Assembly: GCA_002708695.1 (NCBI GenBank)
Contig: PAOZ01000044.1
Coordinates: 1 to 55,526 of the forward strand
Direction: 5' to 3'
Length of the DNA: 55,526 bases
DNA from: Methanobacteriota archaeon
Lineage (GTDB): Archaea; Thermoplasmatota; Poseidoniia; Poseidoniales; Thalassarchaeaceae
The notes beneath the pieces are model-generated. The model ran no database searches. It had not been told where the DNA came from and saw nothing but the letters and a program-made list of their open reading frames with translations. This document shows positions 45,748 through 55,526 of this stretch, piece after piece. The stretch's first letter is position 1, and every line of letters starts with the position of its first letter. The position numbers and the translations under genes were made by a program.

Positions 45748-46338
45748 ATGATGGCAGCAATGCAACGCTTCCGTCTTTTTTCGATTTTGTTGTTAATTCC
45801 AAGTATGCTTTTGCCTGTATATCTAAACGGTCCACGATATCTATACCTATATGCGACTCAGTGGTCAATCGAATTAGCAACATTTGCATTGTTAATCGGA
45901 TATTTACATGAACGATATCCTAAATGGAATTTAGAAAAGATTGCCAGTGCATCTCTTGGAGCCGCAATATATCTTGCATTGGGTACAATGGTAGGTTTTT
46001 GGGTTGCCTTTGCTAGAGTTTATTTTCCCTTAATAAGCACATATTGGATTGTTGCACTTACTTGGAGCCACATTATTCCACAAGTGATTTTGTTAATCAA
46101 TTTACGATTTTCTAATATTCAAATAAGATTATGGCACGGTTTTCTTGGAGCGATTATTGCTACAATTTACTTGCTAATCGATTGGTATAGAGTGGTCATA
46201 AATGACTTGCCTACAACATACGAATTTTTGAGTTGGGAAGCAAGTGATTCTTTTATCAAATCCTCATTTTTCGTTTTGGGTTCGATACTCGTTTACATCC
46301 TTGTAATGAGGGTAAATTTACGGTTTCCAGCTAGGTAA
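45748..46338 (+). CDS. Hypothetical multi-pass membrane protein
   Basis: About six TM helices with Y.TQWS, H..P and Y.FL.W motifs reminiscent of the FAR-17a/AIG1-like family (tentative). Confidence 0.65.
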   Translation: MMAAMQRFRLFSILLLIPSMLLPVYLNGPRYLYLYATQWSIELATFALLIGYLHERYPKWNLEKIASASLGAAIYLALGTMVGFWVAFARVYFPLISTYWIVALTWSHIIPQVILLINLRFSNIQIRLWHGFLGAIIATIYLLIDWYRVVINDLPTTYEFLSWEASDSFIKSSFFVLGSILVYILVMRVNLRFPAR

Positions 46339-48171
46339 GTTTTCATTTTCTTGTAATCGTAGAATACTCGTTCCGGGAATACACTTGACTTGTTTCCTTC
46401 TCGCAAACTCGCCAGGTTCAGCGTTAATGATTGCGATTATATCTCCTCTATTCACTCCATTTGATGTCTCAGGAACATTCATTTTGAATCCGATTACATT
46501 GATTACGCCCGTATGGTCAATCATTGTGATAGACCATCTATCTGAATATCGGCCATCTGGTAAAGTTCCCTTTTGGGATTCTACTGACCAAACTCTGCCT
46601 ACAACGTTAACCCTCGGGTGTATCTCGATAATTTCGATATCTGTTGGAAGTGTTCCTTCTGATAGTTCAATACTTGCATATTGGTCAATTGAAATCTCTG
46701 TTTTACCTCTCCATAGACTTGGTAATCCTCCACGAACTCTGACTTTAACTCCCTTGCGAAGAGATCTAGTTACATTTTTTGGGGCTGTATTCCAAGCATT
46801 TTTTACAGTGACATTATCTAGACCCTGTCTAAGTTCGAATTCAAAAATCACGCCACCATCTTGTAATTTCGGCTCTCGTGGCATTGAGAAAATTTCTCCT
46901 TCTAGATCTACTCGTGTTACTATGTCATTGACGGGAGTTAAGAGTAATTCTCGACCTTTGATTTGAACGGTCTTGTTATCGGGAAGTAGTGCGTCATGGC
47001 CTCCATTCGGACATAATGCCACATATGGACACGTTTTGCAACGTTCAGTAACAACTTCTGATTTTCCTACGAGAATACCTCCTTCTTCAAAATAGTAAAT
47101 TGGACTTGGATTTGGAGGGGCATCATCTTCAGATTTCACGTCTGTTAGAATTTTGTACATTTCTTCCATTTCTTTACTAATTTTGATCAATTCATTTTCA
47201 TCAGGAGCGTCCACTATTTTTCTTCGCCCTGGTCCCAAATACCAGATTTCAAGCCCATCAACAATTATTTCTCTAGAATGCGTTTCCCACCATAGCCATG
47301 AATAAAGTCTCAATTGTTCAGAATACAATCTTGATCGGTCATTATTTCCCATAGATGCTTTAAGATCAATAATCCTAATTTTCCCATCCCATCGATATAC
47401 TAAGTCATATTCTCCCTGAAACCATTGCTCTGGATGAATTGTTTGCATCGAGAAAGGGCGAGCATCTGGATCAACAAACCATGGCCTTGCTATAGCCCAA
47501 GATTCGCTCCAAGTTATCGAACCTGTACTAGCTTCAGGAGGCACATGTGTTCCCGAATTTGAGAATCCATCAGGAGCAGGAAATTCACCTCTATCTCCCC
47601 CCTTTCTCCAATTCTTTAGAGCATCATTGGTAAGATTCGAATGACAATTTGCCACTTCTTCCAAGTGAAGATCTATTCCGCGATGAGCCATTTCAATGAT
47701 TTCATTACGATCTAAGTTTTCTGCCCCTCCAATTCTATGAGGGCTAATTAACCAGTTCATTAGTGCTTCATCAGTACACCTTTCCACGTGTGCGTCTATT
47801 CTTGAATGAGCCCATTTTGCTAACTCATCTAGGTCTTTAGGCTGGTTTTTTTCAGAAATTACATCGAGTGTTGGTCCTAACCAACCTTCTTCACTATCCA
47901 CTAAATCTCCATGTTCGTTTAATGGCGAGACTAGAACCCTATCTGGTGAATCGACATGAATTAATGCTGGTGTTTCTCTCAAGACCCTTGATACACATGA
48001 TTCAACTGCATTTCCCCTAACAATTGCAGAGGGCAACGGCTCTTTGATCTTGAGATGATATTGCATCCAGTATTGACGCGGACAACTGTCCCATGCTCCT
48101 ATTTTTGATGCGGAAAGCCGATCCCAACCTTGGACCACAACGTCCTCGGGCGCTAGTATAGTAACCGGCAT
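46318..48171 (-). CDS. PD-(D/E)XK (Cas4/AddB-like) nuclease fused to two OB folds, paralog B
   Basis: LSASKI..WDSCPRQY, GEYDLV, IIDLKAS, QLRLY, CKTCPYVALC; C-terminal OB-like segments (RVNVVGRV...MIDHTGVINV). Confidence 0.82.
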   Translation of the reverse strand: MPVTILAPEDVVVQGWDRLSASKIGAWDSCPRQYWMQYHLKIKEPLPSAIVRGNAVESCVSRVLRETPALIHVDSPDRVLVSPLNEHGDLVDSEEGWLGPTLDVISEKNQPKDLDELAKWAHSRIDAHVERCTDEALMNWLISPHRIGGAENLDRNEIIEMAHRGIDLHLEEVANCHSNLTNDALKNWRKGGDRGEFPAPDGFSNSGTHVPPEASTGSITWSESWAIARPWFVDPDARPFSMQTIHPEQWFQGEYDLVYRWDGKIRIIDLKASMGNNDRSRLYSEQLRLYSWLWWETHSREIIVDGLEIWYLGPGRRKIVDAPDENELIKISKEMEEMYKILTDVKSEDDAPPNPSPIYYFEEGGILVGKSEVVTERCKTCPYVALCPNGGHDALLPDNKTVQIKGRELLLTPVNDIVTRVDLEGEIFSMPREPKLQDGGVIFEFELRQGLDNVTVKNAWNTAPKNVTRSLRKGVKVRVRGGLPSLWRGKTEISIDQYASIELSEGTLPTDIEIIEIHPRVNVVGRVWSVESQKGTLPDGRYSDRWSITMIDHTGVINVIGFKMNVPETSNGVNRGDIIAIINAEPGEFARRKQVKCIPGTSILRLQENENLPSWKP

Positions 48172-48201
48172 AGTATCGATTTTGGCTGGGGGGTATTGAA
48201 C

Positions 48202-49962
48202 TCAACTATTATTTTCAATCAATTCTAGAATAGTTTGTTTGTTAATTTGAATTTGAGGAGTCCCTTCTCTCCATCCCAATTCTCCATGATGTACAATCAA
48301 TTTATCTCCAATGTTGAGGGATTCAAAGGCCCTAGAACGATTCGAACCAAAAGCGGCAATTTCGATTACACCAGTTCCATCCCAAAGGTGAATTGAACGA
48401 ATTGTCCAGGGGCGACCGTTATTGGATATACCCTGATTTTTACCCATGGACACAACTTGACCCGAAACACTCGCTCTTGTGGGAATTAATCCTAATCTCG
48501 TCCAATTTTCATTATCGTGATAATTTACCAATTTGGTTTTACTATCTAGGAAAAGATGAGGAGTTCCTCTGAAAATACCCGGATTGGCATTGATAATTCC
48601 TATTTCTCCAATCCAATTTTCAGGATTTACTACTCCCTCTTCAGTTTCTTCAATTGTAATCCTAGTGTTTCCAGCTTTGAGAGTAGCAACTCTGACTAAT
48701 TCTCCGTATGAATTCTCCATATCGTGCCAAATATTATCTATAGAACCTCTTACTGAGAGCCTAGAAGGTAAATTATTTATGGTAATTACATTTTCTGGAA
48801 TTTCGAATTCCATGGGTGGAAGGAATTGTCTTGTAGCCCTATTTTTCGGATCGGTTGAATATCCACAAACTTCGAGTCCCTTACAATGTGGACAATGTAA
48901 CGGATGCCCTTCTGGCGTTCCATTATTAGATAACCAACTCCAATCTTGTTCTTGCACTTTTTCCATTTCGTCTCTTATTGCCATTAGACGCAACTTTTCT
49001 GAATCCATCTCCGATTCAGAAAGGATTGGAATTTCATGAATATGTCCGTCTAGCAGAAACCACCCTGCCAATGAGTCAACTTGTTGTTCATCGGGAGAAC
49101 GAGTTTGATTCCACAGCCAATGGTAGAAATTGACTTGAACTTCTAAGTTAGGTTGTGGTTTTCCTTTACCCATGCCTGATTTAATGTCAACAATTGTAGC
49201 ATTTTCTCTCCACCTGTGGACTAAATCCATTTCTCCTGATGCCCAACCTTCTGGGTGATGAATACGTTGTGCTGAAGAGATTCTTGGATCTTTCATCCAT
49301 GGTCTAGAAATTTCCCATGCTTCCCACCATGAAATTTCCTCTCCATGCTCAAGAAATCCCAGTGAAGATTTTTCTCCTGGTGCGGATTTCCATCTGGGTG
49401 CAACTGTTTCAAACGGATCACCATTTTTTCTAAATTTTTCAAGATGTGGCCCACCTCCTGATTCAAGACATTTTGAAGCTTCAGAAATTTGCATTTCTAA
49501 TGCTGCTCCGATTTGTTTTTGAATTGTCTCAATTTCAATATCTTCTGCGCTTTTACCTTTCATTTTCCAAGAGGTTTTTTCCCACTCAATCAAAAAATTA
49601 CTGTATACGTTTTCCGCTAGTGCTGGAATTAGTGAAGATAACCATTTTTGTATTCCTTCTAAAGAATCTATTTTTTCTGTTTCAACTTCATCATGGTTTT
49701 GATTTTCTTGGTATTTCAAGAATGAAGCAACACCATGTGGCAATGATCCATCATTTGGGGGGCTTTCCATTAGTAAACCAACTACTGCATCTTCAAGCAA
49801 AATGCCAAGAATCATGCTTGGTCTAACTGCTCCTCTCAAGCCTATTTTTCTTTTCACCATCCATGATCTTGGACATCTTTGCCAATTCACTAATGAACTT
49901 CCACTAAGCCTATTTCTTTTTCTTCTTCCAGCACCGCCAAATGGAGGGTTATTTACTGGCAT
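48202..49962 (-). CDS. PD-(D/E)XK (Cas4/AddB-like) nuclease fused to two OB folds, paralog A
   Basis: LSGSSL..WQRCPRSW, GEMDLV, IVDIKSG, QVNFY, CPHCKGLEVC; OB-like RASVSGQV...LWDGTGVIEI. GAGGTGA RBS overlapping the ABCE1 stop region. Confidence 0.82.
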   Translation of the reverse strand: MPVNNPPFGGAGRRKRNRLSGSSLVNWQRCPRSWMVKRKIGLRGAVRPSMILGILLEDAVVGLLMESPPNDGSLPHGVASFLKYQENQNHDEVETEKIDSLEGIQKWLSSLIPALAENVYSNFLIEWEKTSWKMKGKSAEDIEIETIQKQIGAALEMQISEASKCLESGGGPHLEKFRKNGDPFETVAPRWKSAPGEKSSLGFLEHGEEISWWEAWEISRPWMKDPRISSAQRIHHPEGWASGEMDLVHRWRENATIVDIKSGMGKGKPQPNLEVQVNFYHWLWNQTRSPDEQQVDSLAGWFLLDGHIHEIPILSESEMDSEKLRLMAIRDEMEKVQEQDWSWLSNNGTPEGHPLHCPHCKGLEVCGYSTDPKNRATRQFLPPMEFEIPENVITINNLPSRLSVRGSIDNIWHDMENSYGELVRVATLKAGNTRITIEETEEGVVNPENWIGEIGIINANPGIFRGTPHLFLDSKTKLVNYHDNENWTRLGLIPTRASVSGQVVSMGKNQGISNNGRPWTIRSIHLWDGTGVIEIAAFGSNRSRAFESLNIGDKLIVHHGELGWREGTPQIQINKQTILELIENNS

Positions 49963-49972
49963 CTTTTCACCT

Positions 49973-51739
49973 CTATGATGAATAAAAATATTCTCCAGAT
50001 GACTTTTGTTCTCGATCTTTCCTACTATCTGGTTTGTTGATTCTAGGTCTCTTAGAATCTTGGTCTCTTCTGAATGTAATTCCTACATTCTTCAGGAATC
50101 GATTCATCCCATTTCTTAGATGGAGTGGGCCGATTGCCTTTCCATTTACTCCACCTTCTCCTTCAAAGACTAGAAGTGAATCACTAACAATGTCGATGAA
50201 GTAAATATCATGATCTATTACCATTGCAGCTTTTTCTTTCGATACCATTGTTCTTCGAATAGCCTTTGCTGCTTCCATTCTAGCATTTGCATCTAAATGG
50301 GCAGATGGTTCATCTAGGAGGTAAATATCTGCATCTTTTCCCAAACAGAGAACAATCCATACGGCTTGTAATTCCCCGCCCGATAATTTTCTTGCTTGAA
50401 GTTCAAGGAGTTGATGTACATTTAATGGCCTTACAACCTTTGTTTGAAATTCTCCTGAGTGCCATGCTCTTCCTAATTCAGTATCTAACCATTCGCGTAC
50501 TGTTCCATCGAAATTTGCTTTAACGTGTTGTGGTTTGTATGAAACTTTAGCATCCATTGTAGTCCATCCACTGTCTGCTTCAATTTCTCCAGCCAACATT
50601 TTCACCATGGTTGTTTTACCAGTTGCATTTGGTCCAACAACTCCAACAACTTCTGCAGAATGAACGGTACCATCTTCGGTATTTAGAGTGAATTCTCCTA
50701 GATTTTTCACTAAGTCTCCCCATTTAAGAATAGGATCTCCAATTTCTTCTGAACGAATTCTACCTGTATGGAAGTTAATTGGTTTGTCTCTAATTCTCAT
50801 ATTTTGTTCAACAAGGTGCCCATCTAAGTAGGCGTTTATTGCAACCCTAGTTGCTCTTGAGGGAGTAAATATTCCATAACCTGCTCTTTCCCCATATACA
50901 ATGTGGACTTGGTCGCACAGAACGTCTAGAATTGCTAGATCGTGTTCAACAACAAGCACCCTTCGACCCATTTCTGCTAAGGATTGAATGATTTTAGTCA
51001 CTCTCATTCTTTCATGAATATCAAGGTAAGAAGTTGCTTCATCAAAGAAATACACATCCGCTTCTTTGAGTAAAGTTGCACATATCGCCACACGTTGTAG
51101 TTCTCCACCTGATAAATCACCAAGTTTACGATCCATAAGGTGAGTAATTCCCATTTCATTGGCCCATTTTTCTACTTCGTTGCGTTCATCTACTCTTTCC
51201 AAAAGTTCGCTAACAATTCCATCGAAAATCTTTGGTAGTTTGTCAACATACTGTGGTTTTACTGCAACTTTAACTCCTGATTCGGCTACTTTTTCTAGAT
51301 AATCTCTTAGTTCTCCTTTGGGATAATTTTCGATAATTTCATCCCATTCCTTTTCCTCTCTCCAATCTCCAAGATTTGGTTTGAGAGCTCCTGAAAGAAT
51401 CTGGACAGCGGTTGATTTTCCCATTCCATTTTGTCCAAGAATTCCAATAACTGCTTCTTCTCTAGGGGTAGGTAATCGAAAAACTCTGAAACCATTCTCT
51501 CCAAAACAATGAGTTAAATCCGTATCGAGTTCTTGGGGGATATTGATCAAAATTACAGCATCTCCAGGGCAATGTTTTGCTCTGTTAAGGCAGACTGGAC
51601 AAGCCGTCTCTAGAATCTTACATTTTTTGTCTACCACTTGAATACATTCGCTACCACACATTCCTGCATATTTTTGTAAATAAGCGAAAGCAGGCATGTT
51701 TGGAGCACACCTGTCTTCAAGTAAAACTGCAACCCGCAT
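49973..51739 (-). CDS. rli: Ribosome recycling ATPase ABCE1 (RLI)
   Basis: Two NBDs (GQNGMGKST/LSGGELQ/FFDE and GPNATGKTT/LSGGELQ/LLDEP), VKPQY, C-terminal ITFRRD...RPRINK.DS..DREQK..GEYFY. Confidence 0.96.
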   Translation of the reverse strand: MRVAVLLEDRCAPNMPAFAYLQKYAGMCGSECIQVVDKKCKILETACPVCLNRAKHCPGDAVILINIPQELDTDLTHCFGENGFRVFRLPTPREEAVIGILGQNGMGKSTAVQILSGALKPNLGDWREEKEWDEIIENYPKGELRDYLEKVAESGVKVAVKPQYVDKLPKIFDGIVSELLERVDERNEVEKWANEMGITHLMDRKLGDLSGGELQRVAICATLLKEADVYFFDEATSYLDIHERMRVTKIIQSLAEMGRRVLVVEHDLAILDVLCDQVHIVYGERAGYGIFTPSRATRVAINAYLDGHLVEQNMRIRDKPINFHTGRIRSEEIGDPILKWGDLVKNLGEFTLNTEDGTVHSAEVVGVVGPNATGKTTMVKMLAGEIEADSGWTTMDAKVSYKPQHVKANFDGTVREWLDTELGRAWHSGEFQTKVVRPLNVHQLLELQARKLSGGELQAVWIVLCLGKDADIYLLDEPSAHLDANARMEAAKAIRRTMVSKEKAAMVIDHDIYFIDIVSDSLLVFEGEGGVNGKAIGPLHLRNGMNRFLKNVGITFRRDQDSKRPRINKPDSRKDREQKSSGEYFYSS

Positions 51740-51798: not shown

Positions 51799-53037
51799 TC
51801 AAAAGAATGTTAAGAATCTATGGCGGATGTATAGACTCAAAGCGAGTGTGATTTTCTCTGCTTTATTTAATCGGATTCGTTCAGAGAAAACATCACCTTC
51901 AACTCGATTTATCTTTTTTAGAATAGAACGATATAGCCCCATCATAATCGCTGGACTATACCTCATTTTTGGTTTTAGCATTGGAAGTAATCCCAATGCT
52001 CTGTCCCTATATACCTCAATTCTTTCAATAAATTCTTTGACAAATGGATTCCATCCAGGATGGTCTTTTAGTTTTCCTTCAAGAACATCTTCAGGTTTAA
52101 TTCCATGTCTCGCTAAGTCATCTATCGGAAGATATATTCTTCCACGATCAGCATCTTCTTGTACATCTCTCAATATGTTTACCAATTGCATGAAAACTCC
52201 CCAAGCTTCTGCATGCTCGCGTGCGGCTGCATCTTCATATCCATATATCTCAATACAAACTAGACCAACTGTAGATGCAACCCTGTAACAGTATTTGTAT
52301 AAATCTTCAAAAGTTTCGTATCTATCTCTGAAGAAATCGTCTTCCATTCCAGTGATTAAATCGTCCATATGTATCTTTGGAATTCCGAATCTTTGAACTG
52401 TATCTTTTAGTGCTAAGAATATAGGATCTGTGGAGGCAAGATCATTATACGCAGTTGACAATTTCTTCCTAAAGAAGTATAGTTGAGCCATCTTATCCAT
52501 GAAACTATGTCTATCTACCACAGGGACTCGTTGAATCATCTCTTCTAGTCTGGCGATGTATTCTTTTGCTTCTGGATCTTCAGCTCCATCAGAGCCAGGA
52601 AATAAGTCTCTGTAATCTCCATCAGCAATATCATCCGCTCTTCTGCAAAATGCATAATATGCGCACATTGCTCTTCGCTGTTCGTCAGGGAGATATTTGA
52701 AGGAATGGTAAAAGTTTGCTGCTTCTCGAATTGTGAGCGCTTCACAGTAGTCATAGGAAGTGTTGACAATAAATGGAGGAATTTCCTTTTCGGACCAGAC
52801 TGGGGCATCTATACTATCAAATGGATTGGATAGCACTTCTCCAGATTTTGTAACTCCCATAAATTTGGCAGATGCACGTAGAGCATCAAATGCAGTAACA
52901 CTTACTGCACGGACTGCTTCAGAGGTAAGTTCAACTGCTGATCTTAATGAGCGTATGCCTTGCTCATCTCGATTTTCATTTTCTAGAGGGGCTTCAATAG
53001 TGGTCTTTGATGCCACCTGACGTACCGTCTCGCCCAT
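51799..53037 (-). CDS. Phytoene/presqualene-diphosphate synthase (CrtB/HpnD-like) with N-terminal extension
   Basis: NFYHSF..LP..RRAM..YYAFCRRADDIAD, YCYRVASTVG, MQLVNILRDVQED..RGRIYLP. Confidence 0.88.
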   Translation of the reverse strand: MGETVRQVASKTTIEAPLENENRDEQGIRSLRSAVELTSEAVRAVSVTAFDALRASAKFMGVTKSGEVLSNPFDSIDAPVWSEKEIPPFIVNTSYDYCEALTIREAANFYHSFKYLPDEQRRAMCAYYAFCRRADDIADGDYRDLFPGSDGAEDPEAKEYIARLEEMIQRVPVVDRHSFMDKMAQLYFFRKKLSTAYNDLASTDPIFLALKDTVQRFGIPKIHMDDLITGMEDDFFRDRYETFEDLYKYCYRVASTVGLVCIEIYGYEDAAAREHAEAWGVFMQLVNILRDVQEDADRGRIYLPIDDLARHGIKPEDVLEGKLKDHPGWNPFVKEFIERIEVYRDRALGLLPMLKPKMRYSPAIMMGLYRSILKKINRVEGDVFSERIRLNKAEKITLALSLYIRHRFLTFF

Positions 53038-53116
53038 CTGAATCGAGTTGAACAGACTGCTGTCCTATATCAAAGGGTGCGATTGTCGCTTAGTTTCTTT
53101 TGATTCGGCTAACATT

Positions 53117-54127
53117 CTATTTTTTCCGATTTTTTTTCAGTAGACGGCGTGTTCCACCAGGGGTAATTGAACCAATAATTGCAGAAGTCATTAATCTCTT
53201 GACAGTTTTTCTTGGAACTTTAACTGGTTCATTTGAATCAAGAACATTGTTCGTGCGAAGTAGATTTACAGTTTGTTGACCAATTAGGATTGGTAATAGA
53301 CATGCAATTTTTAGTCTTATTTGTCGTTTTGGCAACATCAGAATGTATTGTTCAGCGGCATCGATATGTCCTTGCGTAATATCAAGTAGAGATTGATATA
53401 CGGGTGAAAATTTTTCATAATTAGATGCATCAAGTAATTGGCTAGGCTCTAGATTCACATCTTCTAATAGTGGTTTGGGGATGTAGCATCGTCCGAATGA
53501 TAGATCCTCTGGGATGTCTCTCAGGATATTTATCATCTGTAGGGCTTTTCCAAATCTAATGCCATGTTCAAACATTATTTCACTGGTGGGTCCATCAACA
53601 GATACAATATGGGCTAAAGTCATGGTGGTCCAAAATTCCCCAACACAACCAGCAACACGATATGCATAATCATCCAATTCTTTTTCATTTTCTAAGGAAG
53701 AAATTTTATCAGAATCATTTGCTGGGCCAAATCTTTGGAGATCTAGAGTTTGTCCACTGATTATTATTTTAAGACAGCGACGCATATGTATTCTATCATT
53801 TTCGGAAATTGAATTGAATGCATTAAGTGGTATGTCGACATTCTCGAGGAGTTCTTTTTCAGAGGGGTTTGTTTGTAAAGAAGAAAGGTGCGACAAATCG
53901 CCCATTTCTTCGCCATCGTGACTGGTTACTCTGTCCCAAGCCTCCAATGCACTAAGAAGTAAATCCACTTCTCCAGTTTTTGAATCTGCAATTGTGTCTG
54001 CTACTCTAGCTAGCAGATATAGAAGGCCAACTTGTTTTCGAATAGACTTGGGTAGAACTTTTAGGGTAAGGAAGAACGACCGTGAAGTCTGTTCTAACAG
54101 AGTATCAGCAGATGAGTCAATCAGCAT
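53117..54127 (-). CDS. Squalene-synthase-like head-to-head prenyltransferase
   Basis: TSRSF, YLLARVADTIAD, YAYRVAGCVGEFWT, FGKALQMINILRDIPED..GRCYIP. Confidence 0.85.
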   Translation of the reverse strand: MLIDSSADTLLEQTSRSFFLTLKVLPKSIRKQVGLLYLLARVADTIADSKTGEVDLLLSALEAWDRVTSHDGEEMGDLSHLSSLQTNPSEKELLENVDIPLNAFNSISENDRIHMRRCLKIIISGQTLDLQRFGPANDSDKISSLENEKELDDYAYRVAGCVGEFWTTMTLAHIVSVDGPTSEIMFEHGIRFGKALQMINILRDIPEDLSFGRCYIPKPLLEDVNLEPSQLLDASNYEKFSPVYQSLLDITQGHIDAAEQYILMLPKRQIRLKIACLLPILIGQQTVNLLRTNNVLDSNEPVKVPRKTVKRLMTSAIIGSITPGGTRRLLKKNRKK

Positions 54128-54254: not shown

Positions 54255-55526
54255 ATGCAGTGCGGAACTTGTGGCGAGGAGATTCCTAGCGATTCCCTAT
54301 TTTGTCCAGAGTGTGGGGCTCGTCAGAACGCTAGCGGCGGAGACATGCAAACTCCTCCTGCCCCTGTTCCTGAACCAGTTAGTGAAACCCCAATGGACCC
54401 ATCCGCATTTCAACAAACTGTCAATGCTCAAGGAATGATGGGTCAAGGACAAATTCAGCCCAACCAAATAGATCCTCAAAGGGGTGCCCAGAATTTCCTA
54501 TCGTCTCTTGCAGCAGATATGACTGGCCAACCATCTCCTTCTCCTCAACCTGACCCTTCACGTTCAGCACAGGATTTGGTTGTAGATGCTATGGCTGAAG
54601 CAGATAGGGAGAAAAAGGCGAATGCTCGTTCTGCTTGGCTTTCGATGAATCAACAAAGCGCTTCTGATTTACTTAATGCCGTTGGTGCTGTTCAAGGCGC
54701 TCCTAACATTGATCGTTCTTCTACTTCATTAGATGAAGTAGAGCCATTCAATCCACCTCCACAAAATCGTGTATCTTCTTCTACAAATTTACCCTCAGAC
54801 ACACTAGTAAGGAGGATGGTAGAGGTAGCTGTTCGTCGAGTTGGTAGGAAGAGAGGAGTAGGTGTTGAAACTCCTCAAGTAAAGGCAGAAGGGTCTGTTA
54901 TTAGAGTAAATGTAACCTACATTGATGATGGCCGTGTTTTGGATAATCCTCCAGAACTTCATGGGGCGTTTGAACATGCAATTGATACTGAAATCCGTCT
55001 AAAGGGGTACGATGTAGATTTACTACTTGCGTTATTCCGTAGTAAGGATGGTGAAATTTCCTTTTCTTGGGGAGAGGAGCCAGATACTGCTGCTGTTGAA
55101 GATGATGAAGAAATATTCGAATGCGGAGCTTGTGGAGGATTAGTTCGCGATAGTGACCCCTCTTGTCCAACTTGCGGTGCTGAATTCCTTGATGAAGATG
55201 AAGAAGAGCCTGAGCCAGAACCATCTCCTAGAGGGGGCCCATCCGGAGGCCCTAGGGGTCCTAGCCGAGGCGGCCCACCTGGGGGCCCCAAGGGTCCCAG
55301 CCGAGGAGGTCCATCTGGAGGAGGCCCTAGAGGTCCTAGCCGAGGAGGTCCATCTGGAGGAGGCCCCAAGGGTCCTAGCCGAGGAGGTCCACCTGGAGGC
55401 CCTAAGGGTCCTAGTCGAGGCGGTCCACCTGGAGGCCCTAAGGGTCCTAGTCGAGGCGGTCCACCTGGGGGCCCTAAGGGTCCTAGTCGAGGCGGTCCAC
55501 CTGGGGGCCCTAAGGGTCCTAGTAGA
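54255..55526 (+). CDS. Double zinc-ribbon protein with long RGG/Pro-rich repeat tail (runs off the window end)
   Basis: Not in the ORF track because there is no stop. MQCGTCGEEIPSDSLFCPECGARQ..., later FECGACGG...CPTCGAEF, an acidic patch, then repeats; 424 open codons to the edge. Confidence 0.85.
   Translation, partial: MQCGTCGEEIPSDSLFCPECGARQNASGGDMQTPPAPVPEPVSETPMDPSAFQQTVNAQGMMGQGQIQPNQIDPQRGAQNFLSSLAADMTGQPSPSPQPDPSRSAQDLVVDAMAEADREKKANARSAWLSMNQQSASDLLNAVGAVQGAPNIDRSSTSLDEVEPFNPPPQNRVSSSTNLPSDTLVRRMVEVAVRRVGRKRGVGVETPQVKAEGSVIRVNVTYIDDGRVLDNPPELHGAFEHAIDTEIRLKGYDVDLLLALFRSKDGEISFSWGEEPDTAAVEDDEEIFECGACGGLVRDSDPSCPTCGAEFLDEDEEEPEPEPSPRGGPSGGPRGPSRGGPPGGPKGPSRGGPSGGGPRGPSRGGPSGGGPKGPSRGGPPGGPKGPSRGGPPGGPKGPSRGGPPGGPKGPSRGGPPGGPKGPSR
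55230..55526 (+). repeat. GC-rich coding tandem repeat, 8 units of 36/39 bp encoding RGGP(P/S)GG(G)P(K/R)GPS
   Basis: Units read directly from the sequence; the last four are nearly identical at DNA level. Confidence 0.92.

Follow-up and report, generated by a model that had tools for sequence, protein, structure and literature searches.

The window analysed here, a stretch of 55,526 nt, comprises positions 1 to 55,526 of contig PAOZ01000044.1 (GenBank assembly GCA_002708695.1, a Methanobacteriota archaeon placed in the order Poseidoniales, family Thalassarchaeaceae), and it carries on the reverse strand a gene for the ribosome-splitting ATPase ABCE1 (also known as RLI or Rli1) in which only four of the eight canonical cysteine ligands of the N-terminal ferredoxin-like domain are found. 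The protein scores 754.8 bits against the NCBIfam ABCE1/RLI equivalog NF009945 (cut-off 469; positions 2–590 of 592), and two stretches of it are matched by PF00005 (ABC_tran) in Pfam. The features we assign to the gene are given below, with residues numbered along the protein.

49976–51739, reverse strand: ABCE1/RLI coding sequence, 588 aa, with the stop codon at 49973–49975 (NF009945 match, and match of the predicted model to 3bk7).
51548–51739, reverse strand: remodelled N-terminal ferredoxin-like domain (N-domain), residues 1–64, which is also the putative recombination cassette (alignments, AlphaFold2 model, drop in identity confined to this stretch, weak Foldseek matches).
51707–51709, reverse strand: Cys11, canonical ligand 1 of the former cluster I (alignments).
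51656–51658, reverse strand: Cys28, the sole new invariant cysteine and a proposed stand-in for ligand 4 at site II (alignments; TGT and TGC codons).
51644–51646, reverse strand: Cys32, the pre-existing 'ECI' cysteine and proposed fourth ligand of the retained site (alignments).
51620–51622, reverse strand: Cys40, a variable hydrophobic position on strand 39–42 and no ligand candidate (alignments, codons).
51590–51601, reverse strand: Cys47-Pro-Val-Cys50, canonical ligands 5 and 6 of cluster II, at the start of helix 48–55 (alignments, model).
51581–51583, reverse strand: Arg53, in the position of canonical ligand 7 (alignments, codons).
51569–51571, reverse strand: Cys57, canonical ligand 8 of the former cluster I, followed by Pro58 (alignments).
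50780–51514, reverse strand: nucleotide-binding domain 1 (NBD1) with the helix-loop-helix insert and hinge 1, about residues 76–320, motifs intact (Pfam, alignment, model).
49976–50737, reverse strand: nucleotide-binding domain 2 (NBD2) with hinge 2, about residues 335–588, motifs intact (Pfam, alignment, model).

When aligned by HMMER with P. abyssi ABCE1 (3J15_B/3BK7), canonical ligands 1–8 pair with C11, P16, L21, A25, C47, C50, R53 and C57, which is the same mapping as in the first-pass annotation, where ligands 2, 3, 4 and 7 had been read as replaced by P, L, A and R; a MAFFT alignment displaces ligands 2–4 by a few residues and agrees that they are absent. Of the eight-cysteine arrangement CX4CX3CX3CP ... 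CX2CX2CX3CP only ligands 1, 5, 6 and 8 are found, and of the bacterial-type ferredoxin motifs the first is gone and the second has shrunk to CX2CX2R...CP. Neither Fer4 (PF00037) nor Fer4_RLI (PF04068) was detected in a Pfam search of the full protein, and the N-terminal 97 aa searched alone returned just PF04068 (E = 2.7, residues 1–13); the control, a canonical ABCE1 of the same taxonomic family (L058), matches both PF04068 (41.8 bits) and PF00037 (27.4 bits). Seven cysteines in total are present in the window's protein, and the derived form can be written as C11-x16-C28-x3-C32-x14-C47-x2-C50-x2-R53-x3-C57-P. The first-pass annotation had counted C28, C32 and C40 as extra cysteines, and this is right for C28, which is new and invariant, but not for the other two: C32 is also found in the canonical genomes of the order, where the canonical form consists of the eight ligands and an additional 'ECI' cysteine, as well as in mammalian ABCE1 ('LCIEV'), and C40 is not conserved, with C, F, W, I or V at this position across derived copies.

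None of the 38 archaeal derived N-domains, at identities down to 51%, departs from C11, C28, C32, C47, C50, R53 and C57, and the same seven residues are kept in all 42 distinct N-termini found among 121 proteins (120 listed clusters of a protein collection plus the window's protein). Further invariants in the set of 38 are P13, A17, Y20, L21, I33, I42, E44, A46, P48, A54 and P58, and position 56 varies (H, R, L, N or Q). All six invariant cysteines use TGT and TGC alternately, and six codons are used for Arg53. The derived N-domain is under purifying selection, with a median dN/dS of 0.10 and a maximum of 0.17 over codons 2–64 (21 pairs with unsaturated dS from 26 sequences), which, together with the intact frame, bears out the earlier claim that the gene is not decaying. 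The same N-terminus was read as before, and both ATPase domains are intact as had been stated: in an alignment of 65 sequences, the Walker A, signature, Walker B and H-loop residues of both are invariant or almost so (K108, S210–E213, D233–E234 and H266 in one, and G369, K375, S453–E456, D476–E477 and H510 in the other).

An AlphaFold2 model based on the 65 sequences has a mean predicted local distance difference test score (pLDDT) of 87.6, with values of 73–85 for the N-domain, and superposes on the P. abyssi ABCE1 structure 3bk7 with a template modelling (TM) score of 0.91 over 596 columns, N-domain included. The N-domain is predicted to consist of strand 2–6, helix 16–24, strands 33–36 and 39–42, helix 48–55 and strand 62–66, a topology that fits the β-α-β-β-α-β order, and the loop which wraps cluster I in the canonical form becomes a predicted nine-residue helix here. 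The best Foldseek matches of the isolated N-domain are ABCE1 FeS domains and then ferredoxins, although all are weak (best E 0.016, TM 0.44–0.60).

A family search of the window's own genome (G000; 57 contigs, 69.9% complete) found one ABCE1 above the cut-off, with the runner-up at 95.6 bits, and derived-form relatives which are 90–94% complete gave one match each (G061, G007, G009, G019, G025, G039, G069, G143, G032, G034, G040, G054 and G062). The second, canonical ABCE1 that the first-pass annotation had proposed to look for is therefore not seen in the own genome, at 70% completeness, or beside the single matches in these relatives. We note that in one further genome with a derived ABCE1, G011, a second ABCE1 fragment of 192 residues lies at a contig end (G011:C8:6325-6900, residues 395–586, 77% identity), and it may stem from another copy of the gene, mixed strains or contamination. 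Within the phylum, two genomes of a different family (f28) have a second, divergent ABCE1-like match beside the canonical protein (G192:C39:47576-49159 and G231:C8:55428-57002), with 41% identity from residue 56.

ABCE1 is present in 149 of 151 genomes of the order. Using residues 1–64 as the query, we recovered the derived N-domain at E ≤ 1e-15 from 159 of 401 order genomes (112 of 200 in family f1, including G000, 47 of 199 in f3 and none of the two in f2), with the remainder giving 78 weak matches (about 3e-4 to 1e-2) and 164 no match, a bimodal distribution of E-values (genome tallies are hand counts). The N-termini that we read were derived in 53/53 of the strong-match group and canonical in 23/23 of the weak- or no-match group, and no intermediates between the two forms were found among them, with the weaker matches of the strong group (1e-15 to 1e-24) proving to be fully derived. 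Of the 26 genera sampled, 15 contain the derived form, and ten of these contain the canonical form as well (g6, g7, g9, g10, g12, g15, g16, g17, g18 and g19). Outside the order, all eight ligands are kept in 31 of 31 genomes examined from the phylum, including one sampled genome of the same class. In family f1, genera in which all genomes have the derived form (g4, g5, g9 and g13) have genomes of about 1.2–1.6 Mb and all-canonical genera (g2, g3, g8 and g11) genomes of about 1.8–2.2 Mb, a comparison that is confounded by phylogeny.

The protein collection held 476 clusters matching the N-domain at E ≤ 1e-3, and in the 120 clusters listed, together with the window's protein, all N-termini are derived and none has a precomputed Fer4 domain. 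Source names of the clusters include 'Candidatus Thalassarchaeum sp.', 'Euryarchaeota archaeon' and 'Candidatus Thermoplasmatota archaeon', in agreement with the Marine Group II host that had been named from the letters. The stretch is present in 20 marine or seawater sequencing runs from 11 studies, and one independent DNA run covers all 30 bins (gene parts left without contig cover in runs X2, X19 and X20 are uninformative). Contigs from two RNA libraries of one study match 51567–51737 (3 differences) and 51636–51737 (2 differences). The first-pass annotation had allowed for an error peculiar to one assembly, and the number of genomes, genera and independent runs answers this in the negative. 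An artefact of assembly or binning, or a decaying gene, has in its favour that the own genome is a 57-contig assembly which is only 70% complete, but is scarcely conceivable when 159 of 401 genomes, 476 protein clusters and runs from 11 studies all contain the domain, with a low dN/dS, an intact frame and genus-specific combinations of N-domain and ATPase body that are reproducible.

The ATPase bodies tell a different story from the N-domains. Trees of the bodies (quick IQ-TREE searches with SH-aLRT support only) track family and genus and not the type of N-domain, and this is also seen when NBD1 and NBD2 are analysed separately; the derived proteins of genera g16, g17 and g18, for example, group beside the canonical proteins of their own genus. 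On the body tree of 87 sequences the N-domain type switches 13 times, and a tree in which the 53 derived bodies are forced into one clade is worse by 746.7 log-likelihood units and is rejected (p-AU 8e-84, by the approximately unbiased test). One g18 protein (L093) shares 86% identity with a canonical g18 protein in the body and 34% in the N-domain, whereas its N-domain is 97% identical to that of a g16 derived protein with which it shares 74% identity in the body. At the nucleotide level, genomes of the same genus with different forms show 80–88% identity in the upstream gene, 30–50% from about −100 to +190, and 65–85% beyond, compared with 80–86% across the N-domain for canonical–canonical pairs. 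Identity also falls in the intergenic region between two canonical genomes, and therefore the 5' breakpoint of the cassette cannot be placed. NBD1 too has been imported in one g15 clade, whose windows lie nearer to f1 as far as about column 312 of the alignment and nearer to f3 from there on.

As the bodies follow taxonomy, the N-domain does not, and a single clade of derived bodies is rejected, the simplest account would be that homologous recombination, both inside each of the two large families and across them, has repeatedly replaced the first ~190 nt of the gene. Every combination of cassette and body recurs in several species-level genomes, which makes chimeric assembly unlikely.

We searched 1.84 billion representatives with a profile built from the 38 derived domains and found 218 proteins at E ≤ 1e-3, in which the archaeal copies are followed by about 50 eukaryote-type representatives, with canonical domains scoring lower. 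These eukaryote-type ABCE proteins (P0129–P0200 and P0277–P0282, as well as L147, L148 and L149) form a diverse and apparently undescribed family with fast-evolving ATPase bodies. They have N-terminal extensions and a linker of the 'LPSNL..TTHRYG.N.FKLHGLP' type, as in mammalian ABCE1, and their source labels include one eukprot, one merc and one Joint Genome Institute (JGI) name, 'translation initiation factor RLI1'. Three that were tested score higher against yeast or mammalian ABCE1 structures than against archaeal ones (484 vs 421, 404 vs 364 and 454 vs 396 bits), and the window's protein does the opposite (archaeal 560 vs yeast/mammalian 488 bits). The 15 long eukaryote-type bodies form a clade of their own (support 97) outside the archaeal clade (98) and have long branches. 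In the N-domain tree, however, a branch supported at 100% separates 86 derived domains (48 eukaryote-type and 38 archaeal) from 87 canonical ones (P0211 is canonical and was dropped from the eukaryote-type count, leaving 48 distinct domains), and therefore the domain is common to the archaea and the eukaryote-type proteins, the bodies being related at family level only.

Conservation within the eukaryote-type domains is uneven: C47 is kept in 48/48 and C28, C32 and C50 in 46–47/48, with R53 kept in about 37/48, whereas C11 is replaced in nine (by V, A or L) and C57 in nine others (by A, T or S), and no protein lacks the two together. Pro48 is not conserved and may be A, L, M, S or G. One of the genes was located on a 7.8-kb contig with little coding sequence for its length, where its neighbours are a gene for inositol polyphosphate kinase, an open reading frame (ORF) with EF-hands and a frame-split histidine phosphatase gene. 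We also note that the 2.8-kb contig carrying L147 ends in a GC-rich ORF (L147:2330-2755) which resembles a plant-type [2Fe-2S] ferredoxin, and since its composition differs sharply from that of the ABCE part, the contig may be a chimeric transcript assembly.

The direction of transfer between the two groups is given differently by different evidence. A tree including the flanks of the domain places the eukaryote-type copies on one side of a 99% branch, though the archaeal flanks are native and bias this result, and with the cassette alone (52 columns; a poor quick search) neither a single clade of archaeal copies (p-AU 0.999) nor one of eukaryote-type copies (p-AU 0.993) is rejected. Individual residues conflict as well, as the Glu before C32 is that of the canonical proteins of the phylum and Lys12 and Val35 are those of canonical eukaryotes. 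Additional searches with eukaryote-type sequences gave no usable match in the ESM Atlas (N-domain), 71 pattern matches with none confirmed for P0282 and three loci for P0159 in metagenome contigs, and seven matches in a homologue search with residues 1–95 of P0152.

We consider it somewhat more probable than otherwise that this is a single working ABCE1 with a rebuilt wedge, in which one Cys4 metal site is located at the former cluster II and cluster I has been lost. The N-domain would keep the ferredoxin-like fold and would no longer hold two [4Fe-4S] clusters. The former site of cluster I, where ligands 2 and 3 are gone, would be filled by a longer amphipathic helix (A17, F18, Y20, L21 and Y24), and C11 and C57 would be remnants of that cluster. 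At the former cluster II, C47 and C50 may have recruited C28 and the pre-existing C32 to give a CX3C...CX2C site, with Arg53 sitting in the ligand 7 position. The ferredoxin fold directs the residue that follows helix 1 towards the ligand 5–7 site, and it is this logic, taken with the durable CX3C...CX2C core, by which C28 and C32 would join C47 and C50 there. The metal there may be one cluster, either [4Fe-4S] or [2Fe-2S], or else mononuclear Fe or Zn. SufB and SufD are found in G000, and so Fe-S assembly exists in this genome. The first-pass annotation had gone from two ligands left at each cluster to a protein free of Fe-S, which is an overreach because C28, C32, C47 and C50 are almost always kept, even in the divergent eukaryote-type copies where C11 or C57 is sometimes lost, and one Cys4 metal site would be the more economical reading.

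Several observations weigh against such a site. It is deduced from conservation and ferredoxin-fold logic, and the conservation of C32 is not specific evidence since this residue is conserved as a non-ligand in canonical proteins. The invariance of C11 and C57 in all archaeal copies is left unexplained by a one-site model, and an invariant Arg in place of ligand 7 is awkward beside a cubane and may indicate a smaller metal centre or none. The confidence of the predicted N-domain is moderate and the Foldseek matches of the isolated domain are weak, and the RNA-library contigs are compatible with transcription but do not prove it. In addition, contact residues reported for the ribosome-bound protein (K15, N17, E19, P25, R28 and S29; see below) fall in the rebuilt stretch, and the function of the domain could differ.

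The alternative that survives best, which we regard as unlikely but worth serious attention, is a domain without any metal, held together by its hydrophobic and aromatic core and needing no cofactor, in which the cysteines serve in packing or hydrogen bonding; this corresponds to the Fe-S-free protein of the first-pass annotation. The loss of half the ligands, the failure of the Fer4 models to match, the new invariant hydrophobic residues A17, Y20 and L21, the Arg in place of ligand 7 and the additional loss of C11 or C57 in eukaryote-type copies would all be expected of such a domain. However, the near-invariance of C28, C32, C47 and C50 in very divergent copies is what metal ligands typically show and packing residues seldom do, CX3C with CX2C is a common Cys4 arrangement, and a true packing position, residue 40, swaps freely between C, F, W, I and V when these four cysteines do not.

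It is also conceivable, though improbable, that the cysteines form a redox switch with no metal, in which C47-P-x-C50 and/or C28...C32 or C11...C57 would open and close as disulfides and thereby adjust ribosome recycling to oxidative stress. Monocluster ferredoxins carry a disulfide at the site of the lost cluster, and a CPxC motif lies here at the start of the predicted helix 48–55. Archaea of this group in the surface ocean are described as exposed to reactive oxygen species (PMC10783094). Against a switch, Pro48 is not conserved in the eukaryote-type copies, and C11 and C57 are lost independently and are therefore not an obligatory pair. Stable cytosolic disulfides are, moreover, unusual in mesophiles.

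Two [4Fe-4S] clusters bound as before, through relocated C28, C32 and C40 and non-cysteine ligands (Asp, Glu or His), would make use of the seven cysteines of the window's protein, and non-cysteine ligation of clusters is known in other proteins, but this is very hard to reconcile with only six invariant cysteines, an unconserved C40, a variable H56, a site I left with C11 and C57, each dispensable in some eukaryote-type copies, and a cluster I wrapping loop that has been replaced by a predicted helix. A Zn2Cys6 binuclear cluster was also considered and dropped, as only the second half of that motif, CX2CX6C, fits.

Returning to the rebuilt wedge with one Cys4 metal site, ATP-driven closure of both nucleotide-binding domains would push the N-domain out so that it swings into the subunit interface, and we expect this function to be unchanged. 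In the S. solfataricus post-splitting structure (PMC7196836), the FeS domain swings to h44 and uS12 after NBD closure, with rRNA contacts from R2, K15, N17, E19 and K59 and uS12 contacts from P25, R28 and S29. In the window's protein R2 and the basic residue two before C57 are kept, and the other reported contact positions fall in the rebuilt stretch. A comparison of uS12 from seven derived and six canonical genomes showed essentially the same protein with no consistent compensating change, and we therefore expect a wedge that works as before but carries a different cofactor load.

Two reviews (PMC6088178 and PMC3442406) give eight cysteines and two clusters as the rule, and the FeS domain as essential, in both archaea and eukaryotes, and in yeast the dependence of ABCE1 on an oxidant-sensitive cluster supply is described as making it a prime target of oxidative stress (PMC3442406). 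Within the library of papers that we searched, none joins ABCE1 and Marine Group II, and no cysteine-depleted ABCE1 came up. We offer only tentatively, as a scenario more doubtful than probable, that a cluster-poor or cluster-free wedge arose once, crossed between marine eukaryotes and Group II archaea and spread through no fewer than 15 archaeal genera in the form of a ~190-nt cassette because it frees ABCE1, the one universally essential Fe-S protein of translation, from a requirement for 4–8 Fe and from oxidant-sensitive cluster delivery. An adaptation to oxic, iron-poor seawater, as suggested in the first-pass annotation, would fit a distribution restricted to marine archaea of this order and marine eukaryote-type sequences.

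If the scenario of a wedge that arose once and spread is true, ribosome splitting can do without the two [4Fe-4S] clusters of ABCE1. A natural ABCE1, apparently in single copy, that lacks half of its ligands in some of the most abundant surface-ocean archaea offers a ready way to test the purpose of these clusters. That a domain of 64 residues has spread like a cassette in a core translation gene, and that it also occurs in eukaryote-type proteins, are rare examples of domain-level exchange in the information-processing core. Should the change reduce the need for iron or the sensitivity to oxidants, ocean plankton would provide one more instance of metal sparing.

Other genes lie close to ABCE1 in the window. 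Directly upstream are two tandem genes of the squalene/phytoene synthase family (51799–54127, reverse strand; 412 and 336 aa), and the gap of 59 nt between these and the ABCE1 start suggests co-transcription. Just downstream (46318–49962, reverse strand) are two tandem paralogues of 617 and 586 aa, each with a PD-(D/E)XK nuclease domain and a C-terminal OB-fold, and an ORF on the forward strand which runs off the end of the window (54255–55526) has two zinc-ribbon motifs and a long series of near-perfect 'GGP(K/R)GPSRGGP' repeats.

The window's protein can finally be compared with three known or newly recognised systems. With the eukaryote-type ABCE proteins it shares a homologous N-domain and the pattern CX16CX3C...CX2CX2RAKxCP, and they differ from it in their non-archaeal bodies, N-terminal extensions, very long branches and, in some, the lack of C11 or C57. 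The monocluster ferredoxins and the ferredoxin-like domain of archaeal RNA polymerase subunit D offer a likeness in that a two-cluster fold has been cut to one or none with the structural role kept, and such chains are among the weak Foldseek matches of the isolated domain (1vjw, 1siz, 2waq_D, 2pa8_D and 4ayb_D; E 0.35–1.7), although there is no sequence kinship beyond the fold. Monocluster ferredoxins retain the site of ligands 1, 2, 3 and 8, whereas the conserved set here is that of the other site, with ligands 5 and 6 and two recruits. Canonical ABCE1/Rli1 shares with the window's protein its length, the succession of N-domain, NBD1 with the helix-loop-helix insert, hinge and NBD2, the (predicted) ferredoxin-like topology and ligands 1, 5, 6 and 8, but here ligands 2, 3, 4 and 7 are gone, the Fer4 and Fer4_RLI models no longer match, and C28 and R53 are the new invariants.

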